From: a virus
Taxonomy: Duplodnaviria; Heunggongvirae; Uroviricota; Caudoviricetes
Length of the DNA stretch: 44,629 nt
Direction: 5' to 3' (one strand)
IMG/VR virus record: IMGVR_UViG_2609460219_000007
This document shows, piece after piece, positions 31,419 through 31,904 of the stretch. Position numbers and translations under genes: made by a program. The notes below the pieces were generated by a model. It had not been told where the DNA came from. It ran no database searches and saw only the letters and a list, made by a program, of their open reading frames with translations. Position 1 is the stretch's first letter. Each line of letters begins with the position of its first letter.

Positions 31419-31904
31419 ATGGATCGGGAACTGAAAAATCTGATGCTGAACATTAACCAGCTGGCGGCGATAGCGGGAATATGTCGCCAGACTGCGGCGG
31501 CAAGGCTGAAAAATATCCAGCCAGCCGGAGGACATGACAAGCTGAAACTCTATCGGGTGACTGACATTCTGACCTGTTTTCTTGATCTTCCCGTTCCGGC
31601 ATCACTGGAAGAAATGGAGCCACACGACCGTAAGGCCTGGTATCAGTCCGAACGTGAGCGCCTCAAGTTCGAACAGGAAACGGCGCAACTCATACCCGCC
31701 GATGATGTGCGAAAAGAGATGGCTATATGGGGAGAAATCGTAAGCGAGGAACTGGAAAAACTCCCCAGTATTCTGGCACGTGATGTTGGGCTTAAACCGA
31801 TGGCAGTAAACAGAGTGCAGTCAATTATTGACGATTTGTGTAATCAGATTATCAGCCGGATGGTAAAAAATGACGTAGTGAATGAGGTCGCAAAACAGGC
31901 ATGA
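31419..31904 (+). CDS. Terminase small subunit paralog (satellite TerS-like)
   Basis: 161-aa product from MDRELKNLMLNINQLAAIAG...; central region homologous to phage TerS (MEPHDRKAWYQSERERLKFEQETAQLIPADDV vs MEPKERKDWYQSENERIKLEKEQRKLIPVDEV); divergent N-terminus. Confidence 0.7.
   Translation: MDRELKNLMLNINQLAAIAGICRQTAAARLKNIQPAGGHDKLKLYRVTDILTCFLDLPVPASLEEMEPHDRKAWYQSERERLKFEQETAQLIPADDVRKEMAIWGEIVSEELEKLPSILARDVGLKPMAVNRVQSIIDDLCNQIISRMVKNDVVNEVAKQA

Follow-up and report, generated by a model that had tools for sequence, protein, structure and literature searches.

A mosaic small terminase in an Escherichia coli phage satellite joins a cosB and DNA-binding cassette shared with lambdoid phages to a satellite-specific C-terminal half

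The window analysed here is a stretch of 44,629 nucleotides of viral DNA (IMG/VR record IMGVR_UViG_2609460219_000007). It holds a lambdoid prophage, the helper, and a satellite of the phage-inducible chromosomal island (PICI) type, which lies inside the helper gene for the large terminase subunit (TerL). The satellite has a gene, terS, for a small terminase subunit (TerS), and we found that this gene is a mosaic. The DNA-binding domain (DBD) at its N-terminus and the cosB sequence in front of it are shared with ordinary lambdoid phages, a short central helix is invariant, and the C-terminal half appears to be an allele of the satellite lineage. Two packaging routes are established for satellites of cos phages: carrying the cos site of the helper, as in P4 and SaPIbov5, and re-aiming the helper TerS with the protein Rpp. 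Our preferred reading, to which we give a probability of about one half, is that the satellite terS encodes a functional small terminase adapted to satellite life, whose winged helix-turn-helix (wHTH) would bind the cosB of the adjacent cos copy and direct the helper TerL to the satellite cosN. Novelty lies in the cassette mosaic and in a C-terminal domain private to satellites, and not in the divergent N-terminus; the element type, the helper-embedded PICI (HE-PICI), has already been published. The terS genes and their parts are as follows.

31419-31904, plus strand: satellite terS (DUF1441/Nu1-like small terminase), an intact open reading frame (ORF) of 161 amino acids with PF07278 and phrog_141 matches and a RefSeq coding sequence.
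31419-31628, plus strand: predicted N-terminal wHTH DNA-binding domain, 'type A', amino acids 1-70.
31629-31700, plus strand: invariant central helix RKAWYQSERERLKFEQETAQLIPA, amino acids 71-94, without a non-synonymous change in any satellite/phage pair; putative right-hand recombination joint.
31701-31901, plus strand: satellite-specific C-terminal half, amino acids 95-161, near-identical among satellites, with a non-acidic tail (2 D/E in the last 20 residues).
20293-20820, plus strand: helper prophage terS (DUF1441, Tritos/cdtI type), 175 amino acids, 99% identical to that of phages Tritos and cdtI, with PHROG matches.

The satellite gene starts with an ATG that has GGAG 8 nt upstream. The protein matches the Pfam family PF07278/DUF1441 over residues 10-148 (E=2e-35, 122 bits against a curated cut-off of 35.1), which is a full-length match, and phrog_141, 'terminase small subunit', over residues 1-152 (E=5e-57). 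These profile matches, and the location of the gene inside an insert bounded by attachment sites, bear out the proposal of an earlier sequence-only reading that the satellite carries a TerS homologue. In E. coli A5, whose chromosome is 99.5% identical, the protein is WP_000373415.1, annotated in RefSeq as 'DUF1441 family protein'. The window contains 32 N characters, none of them within the terS ORF; compared with A5, several are 1-nt insertions beside homopolymers and others are plain base substitutes. The insertions at 22493 and 23137, within the integrase gene, and at 30229, within the gene for the protease-capsid fusion, produce apparent frameshifts that are artefacts; terS is unaffected.

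The helper TerS is the sole paralogue of the satellite TerS in the window. The two proteins have 49% identity over amino acids 66-140 (pairwise E=1e-20), the alignment being limited to that stretch, and both contain the motif MEP..RK.WYQSE.ER.K.E.E...LIP.D.V. The core that had been called oligomerisation-like is conserved only over amino acids 71-94, and from amino acid 95 on the E. coli satellites have a diverged allele. The first ~65 residues of the two proteins give no BLAST alignment and have ~30% identity in a MAFFT alignment; the last ~20 residues also differ. Since both N-termini fit one family profile from residue ~1, the segment that had been described as different is a divergent homologous domain, although it cannot be aligned by BLAST to that of the helper. 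Nor is it a novelty of the satellite, because ordinary lambdoid prophages have a TerS (P0010, at loci L007/L008) with which it shares 100% identity over residues 1-94. The P0010 protein occurs in the ordinary prophages L007-L009, where the order is lysis genes, TerS, a 700-residue TerL and the portal. Among 50,697 phage records, the closest matches of the satellite protein are the TerS proteins of mEp460, phi458, PhiR40_1 and Ayreon, with 66-71% identity over amino acids 1-150, and those of the resident helper type (Tritos, cdtI) rank near the bottom of the matches. Modular relatives were drawn from a collection of 5.8 billion proteins.

An AlphaFold2 model of the satellite TerS, computed from a 30-sequence alignment (mean predicted local distance difference test score, pLDDT, 80), has a strand-helix-helix-hairpin-helix fold at residues 9-56, helices at 68-87, 94-113, 115-123 and 127-151, and a disordered tail at 153-161. 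The predicted N-terminal wHTH superposes on the DBD of the lambda TerS, so that the model places a wHTH DNA-binding domain at the N-terminus. A search of the satellite TerS (phmmer, E up to 10) and of the 93-residue ORF that follows it against all chains of the Protein Data Bank gave no meaningful match, and none to RppC (6HN7) or lambda Nu1.

The mosaic is seen when nucleotide sequences are compared along the locus. In a sliding comparison of a satellite with a phage of the same DBD type, with positions counted from the terS ATG, identity is 96-100% from position -218, the start of cos, to ~+262; beyond ~+262 it is ~55%, and upstream of -218 the sequences are unrelated. Satellites of different DBD types have 90-100% identity up to cosN, 30-80% through cosB and the DBD, and 100% from +225 on. 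This pattern points to a cassette of ~480 bp, made of cosB and terS codons 1 to ~87, that is exchanged between phages and satellites. Conserved anchors, cosN on one side and the invariant helix on the other, limit the exchange, which would proceed by recombination between them. Substitution rates, estimated by the Nei-Gojobori method, give the same division. Between a satellite and a phage of the same DBD type, the N-terminus has a non-synonymous rate (dN) of 0 and a synonymous rate (dS) of 0-0.15, and the central block has dN = 0 in all pairs. For the C-terminal half, dN is 0.013-0.019 between satellites and 0.43 between satellite and phage, with dS saturated and omega roughly 0.14. Other satellites carry a DBD of the phi458/mEp460 type (P0007; L011-L013) or of a third type (P0015; L010), and in every case examined, which covers three satellite classes and their phage counterparts, the type of cosB follows the type of DBD. 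The DBD and cosB of the present satellite differ from those of its resident helper and are yet identical to those of other lambdoid phages, which are equally possible helpers. A single DBD is found joined to either of two C-termini that differ greatly, and a single C-terminus to any of three DBDs, all of these combinations being present in sequenced strains. The TerS mosaic amounts to a natural experiment on an old question of lambda-type packaging, namely which portions of the protein are responsible for DNA specificity and for the engagement of TerL.

The C-terminal half that these satellites have in common reads ADDVRKEMAIWGEIVSEEL.KLP.ILARD.GLKPMAVNRVQSIIDDLCNQIISRMVKNDVVNEVAKQA, and its phage counterpart reads ASDVRREFAIWAKAVVQVLETLPDILERDCGLQPAAVSRVQSIIDDLRDQIALRVTEAGADDEEELQQEE. 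This allele is kept in five independent E. coli satellite contexts, with four integration sites and two types of replicase among them, and the last 65 residues are 51% identical to the closest phage type. In a survey of 40 records spread across the ranking of an E. coli genome search for the terS C-terminus and the 93-residue ORF, none had the satellite-type C-terminus without the 93-residue ORF, which is consistent with confinement of the allele to satellites. Judged from these comparisons, the C-terminal half is probably a satellite-lineage allele and the part that would have to interface with helper proteins. We compared its tail with 70 species-representative genomic loci, 64 of which have a gpA-type TerL match after the DUF1441 gene, 61 of these with intact ORFs. 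The TerL match lies within ~60 nt of the DUF1441 gene at 59 of the 64 loci, and the satellite terS departs from this typical adjacency, being followed by the 93-residue ORF and then by attR. An acidic tail closes 61/61 of the intact TerL-adjacent homologues, whose final 20 residues include 4-10 D/E. Its loss was considered as a general trait of satellites and this was ruled out, given that the satellites L067 (Phytobacter) and L070 keep a phage-like C-terminal half. These two satellites, of other genera, combine it with a private DBD, which is the arrangement that the sequence-only reading had envisaged.

As judged from lambda, TerS would use its C-terminal part to contact TerL (PMC6739421, citing Frackman 1985; PMC9026076). 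When five phages of the present group are compared, percentage identities in the last 65 residues of TerS and the first 35 residues of TerL are 100/100, 70/49, 49/32 and 42/29, while TerL is much more conserved beyond its first 35 residues. This co-variation is consistent with contact of TerL by the TerS C-terminus. The TerL proteins of the Tritos and phi458 types are 77-98% identical overall and 32% identical in their first 35 residues (window 20829-20930 against L005 3217-3320). The paired divergence of the TerL N-terminus and the TerS C-terminus looks like a swappable TerS/TerL interface module.

The element that carries the gene is delimited by two short identity blocks, and a capsid gene lies within it.

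21812-21818, plus strand: attL core CTGGATG, left junction of the satellite, at codon 330 of the helper terL.
32560-32566, plus strand: attR core CTGGATG, where the helper terL restarts.
29246-31160, plus strand: satellite gene for a ClpP-protease/major-capsid fusion, with Pfam matches; a single coding sequence in E. coli A5.

The prophage is of the cdtI/Tritos type, and both phages are 99% identical to window positions 20097-21818. Similarity to the Tritos terL ends at 21818 and restarts at 32567. The left satellite/terL junction reads TTTCTGGATG|TAGGG and the right one TTCCTGGATG|GAAGGG, and the uninterrupted Tritos gene reads TTTCTGGATGGAAGGG across the same site. These junctions show that a PICI-type satellite of 10.7 kb is inserted site-specifically at the 7-bp core after terL codon 330, in the same orientation as the helper genes. 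Excision of the satellite (21812-32566) would restore the helper terL exactly. The region 31901-33676 was also considered as a decayed full-length terL placed after a phage terS; this was ruled out by the Tritos alignment, in which terL is interrupted at codon 330 by an att-bounded insert. The early genes of the satellite encode a P4-type integrase, AlpA, a Bro-N protein, an Icd-like protein, a DUF4222 protein, a D5-type primase and a single-stranded DNA-binding protein (SSB), and iterons are also present. The late genes are the protease-capsid fusion, the DUF1441 terS and the 93-residue ORF. Neither the gene content of the window nor profile searches revealed a terL, portal or head-tail connector gene between attL and attR. 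The same satellite backbone is found with other integrases at ordinary chromosomal sites (L004 and L010, between cspD and clpS; L011-L013; L016-L019). Because the insert is bounded by att sites, and the same gene occurs at chromosomal sites without neighbouring phage genes, the terS studied here is a satellite gene. A satellite-plus-junction query (21500-33000) is covered to 80% or more in at least 7 complete E. coli genomes, and many others contain parts of it.

Three cos-like copies had been proposed in the window, and all three are real.

20060-20304, plus strand: cos copy 1, the helper cos; the left genome end of Tritos/cdtI maps to 20097.
28649-28893, plus strand: cos copy 2, with a helper-type cosB, 90% identical to copy 1 over 237 nt.
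31186-31265, plus strand: core of cos copy 3 (cosQ-like/cosN; predicted nick ~31222/31223; cohesive end GGGCGGGAGCGG), which aligns with copies 1 and 2 and with the left ends of Tritos and mEp460.
31266-31418, plus strand: cosB of copy 3, 'type A', unlike copies 1 and 2 and 96-100% identical to the cosB of L007/L008, which have the same DBD.
31276-31292, with an inverted partner at 31376-31392: candidate R3-like element in the cosB of copy 3, tentative because the DNA is AT-rich.

The cosN region common to the three copies is GGGCGGGAGCG(T/G) with flanking bases. The similarity of copy 2 to the helper cos spans cosB and takes in 12 nt from the start of the helper terS. Only the 80-nt core of copy 3 is in common with copies 1 and 2, from which it diverges ~45 nt past the nick. 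Since the left end of Tritos/cdtI lies at 20097, the equivalent cosN nick of copy 3 falls at ~31223. The satellite terS does follow copy 3, as had been noted, with its ATG 196 nt downstream of this predicted nick, and the same cosN-to-ATG spacing is found in the helper, Tritos and mEp460. The satellite DBD also appears to belong to another specificity group than that of the resident helper, and the neighbouring cosB is of the type that goes with it. An inverted-repeat element that starts ~54-55 nt from the nick, where R3 lies in lambda, is present in each cos type; the DNA being AT-rich, such repeats are weak evidence. The present satellite, L004 and L010 carry both cos2 and cos3, and L011-L013 carry only cos3. 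The two satellite copies are in the same orientation, 2.5 kb apart, on either side of the capsid gene. At its 12th position, the predicted cohesive end has G in copy 3 but T in the other two copies, and this difference between cos2 and cos3 is a natural tag of which site is cut.

In the mechanism that we propose, the N-terminal winged-helix domain would bind the cosB of the adjacent cos3, the two forming a cognate 'type A' lambdoid pair unlike that of the resident helper. The satellite TerS would then nucleate cutting of the satellite cosN by the helper large terminase. Without terL or portal genes of its own, the satellite must use those of the helper. The satellite DNA would next be packaged, probably into capsids made of the satellite's own protease-capsid fusion, and cos2 would be an additional way in, by means of the helper TerS. 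The comparisons show homology, the predicted fold, the linkage of cosB and DBD types, conservation of the C-terminus among satellites and the lack of terL; the steps that we infer are binding to cos3 DNA, engagement of the helper TerL and any effect on helper packaging. Redirection of the helper TerL by the satellite TerS is plausible. The setting is that of a satellite that lacks terL and has packaging sites of its own, cos2 and cos3. TerS has been listed among the core components of PICIs, which have been defined bioinformatically by int, a regulator, pri-rep, a capsid gene and terS (PMC10085698). A precedent for two sites exists in EcCICFT073, which has two cos sites, one of them matched to its own DBD protein, Rpp (PMC6739421).

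Several findings weigh against this reading. The co-variation of cosB and DBD could stem from their physical linkage in one cassette and not from selection, and the cassette of L004 is identical to that of a phage, so that its DBD would not tell the satellite from that phage. With its helper-type cosB, cos2 gives the helper TerS a cognate site, and recognition of the satellite therefore does not depend on its own TerS. Sister satellites without terS exist in O121 and O157. The last 65 residues of the satellite TerS are 30% identical to those of the resident helper's, and the last 20 residues, with 2 D/E and 3 K/R, do not form the acidic tail typical of the family. As the C-terminal half is not matched to the helper and has no acidic tail, and TerL N-termini co-vary with TerS C-termini, direct recruitment of TerL is not assured.

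These last points would be accommodated if the protein acted in the manner of Rpp or as a dominant-negative subunit. It would then not bind TerL itself but would co-assemble with the helper TerS through the central helix, and the mixed oligomers would lose the helper cosB or go to cos3, with the helper TerS supplying the contact to TerL. The central helix alone is conserved with the helper TerS, with 20/32 residues identical against ~30% in the flanks, the satellite allele is without the acidic tail typical of phage TerS, and Rpp is itself a wHTH protein that pairs with the helper TerS and has no TerL-binding domain (PMC6739421, PMC9026076). We nevertheless consider this explanation, the main rival, unlikely, if far from negligible: the satellite protein has no sequence similarity to RppA/RppC, it has the full length and the predicted fold of a TerS, Rpp binds the DBD of the helper protein and not a central helix, and the L067 and L070 satellites of other genera keep a phage-like C-terminal half. 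Another possibility is that terS and cos3 were captured passively from a phage through recombination in the late zone and have no dedicated role, cos2 and the helper TerS being sufficient for packaging. PICI late zones are known to take up late genes of the helper (PMC10111431), many related satellites have no terS (the 93-residue gene is in 889 genomes, terS together with that gene in 191), and cos2 carries a helper-type cosB. Passive capture is however improbable, in view of a C-terminal allele that is old (dS saturated against phages) and yet intact and nearly invariant in several backbones and integration sites. No frameshifted or truncated copy of terS turned up among the satellite loci examined, the cassette has been replaced repeatedly while the satellite C-terminus was kept, which argues for use, and L011-L013 have cos3 only.

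The gene might also be read as the prophage's own TerS or as a remnant of a second prophage, given that DUF1441 is the usual TerS of this lambdoid group and that the gene lies upstream of the nuclease half of terL. The junction analysis refutes this, and we give it virtually no credence: the gene is within an att-bounded insert together with int, alpA, Bro-N, primase, SSB and capsid genes, a separate terS of the helper lies at 20293, and satellites at chromosomal sites carry the same gene with no phage genes nearby. A broader and rather speculative proposal, which we regard as doubtful, is that E. coli PICIs split TerS into a disposable 'address cassette' of cosB and DBD, traded with lambdoid phages, and a private C-terminal effector without the usual acidic tail. 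The effector would act either as a contact to TerL that is independent of the variable TerL N-terminus, making it a universal adaptor with a wider helper range, or as a poison of helper TerS/TerL assembly. If true, this would be a third and previously undescribed way to hijack cos packaging, beside carrying the helper's cos and Rpp. The mosaic also indicates that packaging-specificity cassettes are actively exchanged between phages and their parasites, a finding relevant both to the range of helpers and to how PICI-borne traits spread in E. coli.

The satellite TerS can be compared with several known systems. The phage DUF1441 TerS proteins (mEp460, phi458, Ayreon, cdtI/Tritos and P0010) are of the same Pfam and PHROG family and of the same length, have a predicted wHTH followed by helices, and are encoded 196 nt downstream of cosN. 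The satellite protein differs from them in having no terL next to its gene, a distinct C-terminal allele and no acidic tail. Lambda gpNu1 (PDB 1J9I; 6HN7, chain B) is a TerS of a different Pfam family without detectable sequence similarity to the satellite protein. TerS_S of the Staphylococcus aureus pathogenicity islands (SaPIs) SaPI1 and SaPIbov1, the classical case of a satellite TerS re-aiming the helper TerL, is likewise a satellite-encoded TerS homologue of a satellite without TerL, with a presumed division into its own recognition subunit and the helper's motor. SaPIs, however, package by the headful pac mechanism, have a TerS of an unrelated family and pair it with the inhibitor Ppi, while the present system is of the Nu1 type with cos; no equivalent of Ppi was identified in this satellite. 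RppA/RppC of the EcCICFT073-type PICIs are also E. coli PICI proteins with a TerS-like wHTH, on a two-cos island (PMC6739421). Rpp goes with a PICI-specific cosB, whereas the cosB of the satellite TerS is shared with phages. Furthermore, Rpp is shorter, binds the DBD of the helper TerS, targets helpers of the Nu1 type rather than the DUF1441 type and has no sequence homology with the satellite TerS; what they have in common is architecture only, namely a wHTH, a helical dimerisation region and the lack of an acidic tail. The E. coli PICIs that are understood experimentally use Rpp and have no terS (PMC6739421). Our literature searches found no functional study of DUF1441 or of a satellite TerS in cos-type PICIs, and the Nu1-like TerS of such PICIs has so far been catalogued by bioinformatics only.

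Capsid-forming PICIs (cf-PICIs) resemble the satellite in having their own HK97-type capsid protein, a protease and a TerS. They add TerL, portal, HNH and connector genes and a P27-type TerS (for example L021), none of which are found here, and the satellite, which has only the capsid and protease functions, is therefore not a cf-PICI. It does have the features of the HE-PICI configuration published by Tommasini, Mageeney and Williams (PMC10111431; bioRxiv 10.1101/2022.07.18.500453): the gene order, with P4-type integrase, AlpA, Bro and replication and late zones, the co-oriented insertion in a lambdoid late gene (terL, the cognate of lambda A) and a short att identity block. The model element of that work, 11capE, has no terS; TerS genes were not analysed there and the cassette mosaic was not reported (PMC10111431).

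The capsid gene and the putative origin of the satellite were also inspected. Its protease-capsid fusion is ~43-63% identical to prophage homologues of other genomes. The helper, too, encodes a ClpP-protease/major-capsid fusion (window 35146-37365), and the size of the satellite genome would suit a much smaller capsid. Direct and inverted copies of TGTTCACC/GGTGAACA are clustered at 27675-27900, just 3' of the primase gene, with another copy within the gene at 26382; the cluster probably represents the iterons of the satellite replication origin. Two further features flank terS.

31168-31192, plus strand: terminator-like hairpin and T-run between the capsid gene and cos3.
31907-32188, plus strand: 93-residue ORF, a generic PICI right-end gene that starts 3 nt after the terS stop and matches phrog_1561.

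A GC-rich hairpin with a T-run lies directly 5' of both satellite cos copies (31168-31192 and 28632-28655). A scan of the plus strand 5' of the satellite terS for sigma-70 promoters found none, and the gene is probably expressed by read-through late transcription. As it lies behind a terminator-like signal and no sigma-70-like promoter was detected, its expression may need antiterminated late transcription of the helper.

Among 5426 complete E. coli genomes, 184 have at least 80% coverage of a segment that starts at the capsid gene's 3' end, takes in cos3 and terS and finishes with the 93-residue ORF, and 191 have the terS C-terminus with that ORF, so that the satellite terS module is present in about 3.5% of them. 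The 93-residue ORF itself is found in 889 of the 5426, ~700 of which are without terS, and it gave a single partial match in the 50,697 phage records. It has a very basic C-terminal tail and no Pfam family, and its AlphaFold2 model has low confidence (pLDDT 62). PICIs end with this gene whether or not they carry terS, and so does the cf-PICI L021. A role of this ORF as a dedicated partner or adaptor of TerS was considered, on the grounds that it closely abuts terS and is always found downstream of it, and is weakened by its occurrence without terS, by its position after cos in satellites that have no terS, and by its presence at the end of a cf-PICI that has a P27-type TerS and TerL. HE-PICIs without terS occur at the same terL site in L003 (E. 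coli O121 RM8352, 12500-15600) and L020 (O157:H7, 2744-3286); there, the 93-residue ORF directly follows the cos region, at about the distance expected for the start of terS. The O121 element was considered as a clean terS deletion and dropped as uninformative, its cos copies being divergent or degenerate, with a 2-nt deletion in cosN among the changes. In one chromosome (GCA_031665325.1), two satellite copies that carry terS, L011 and L012, lie ~21 kb apart, and a further integrase/AlpA pair comes directly after one of them, an arrangement suggestive of satellites in tandem or side by side.

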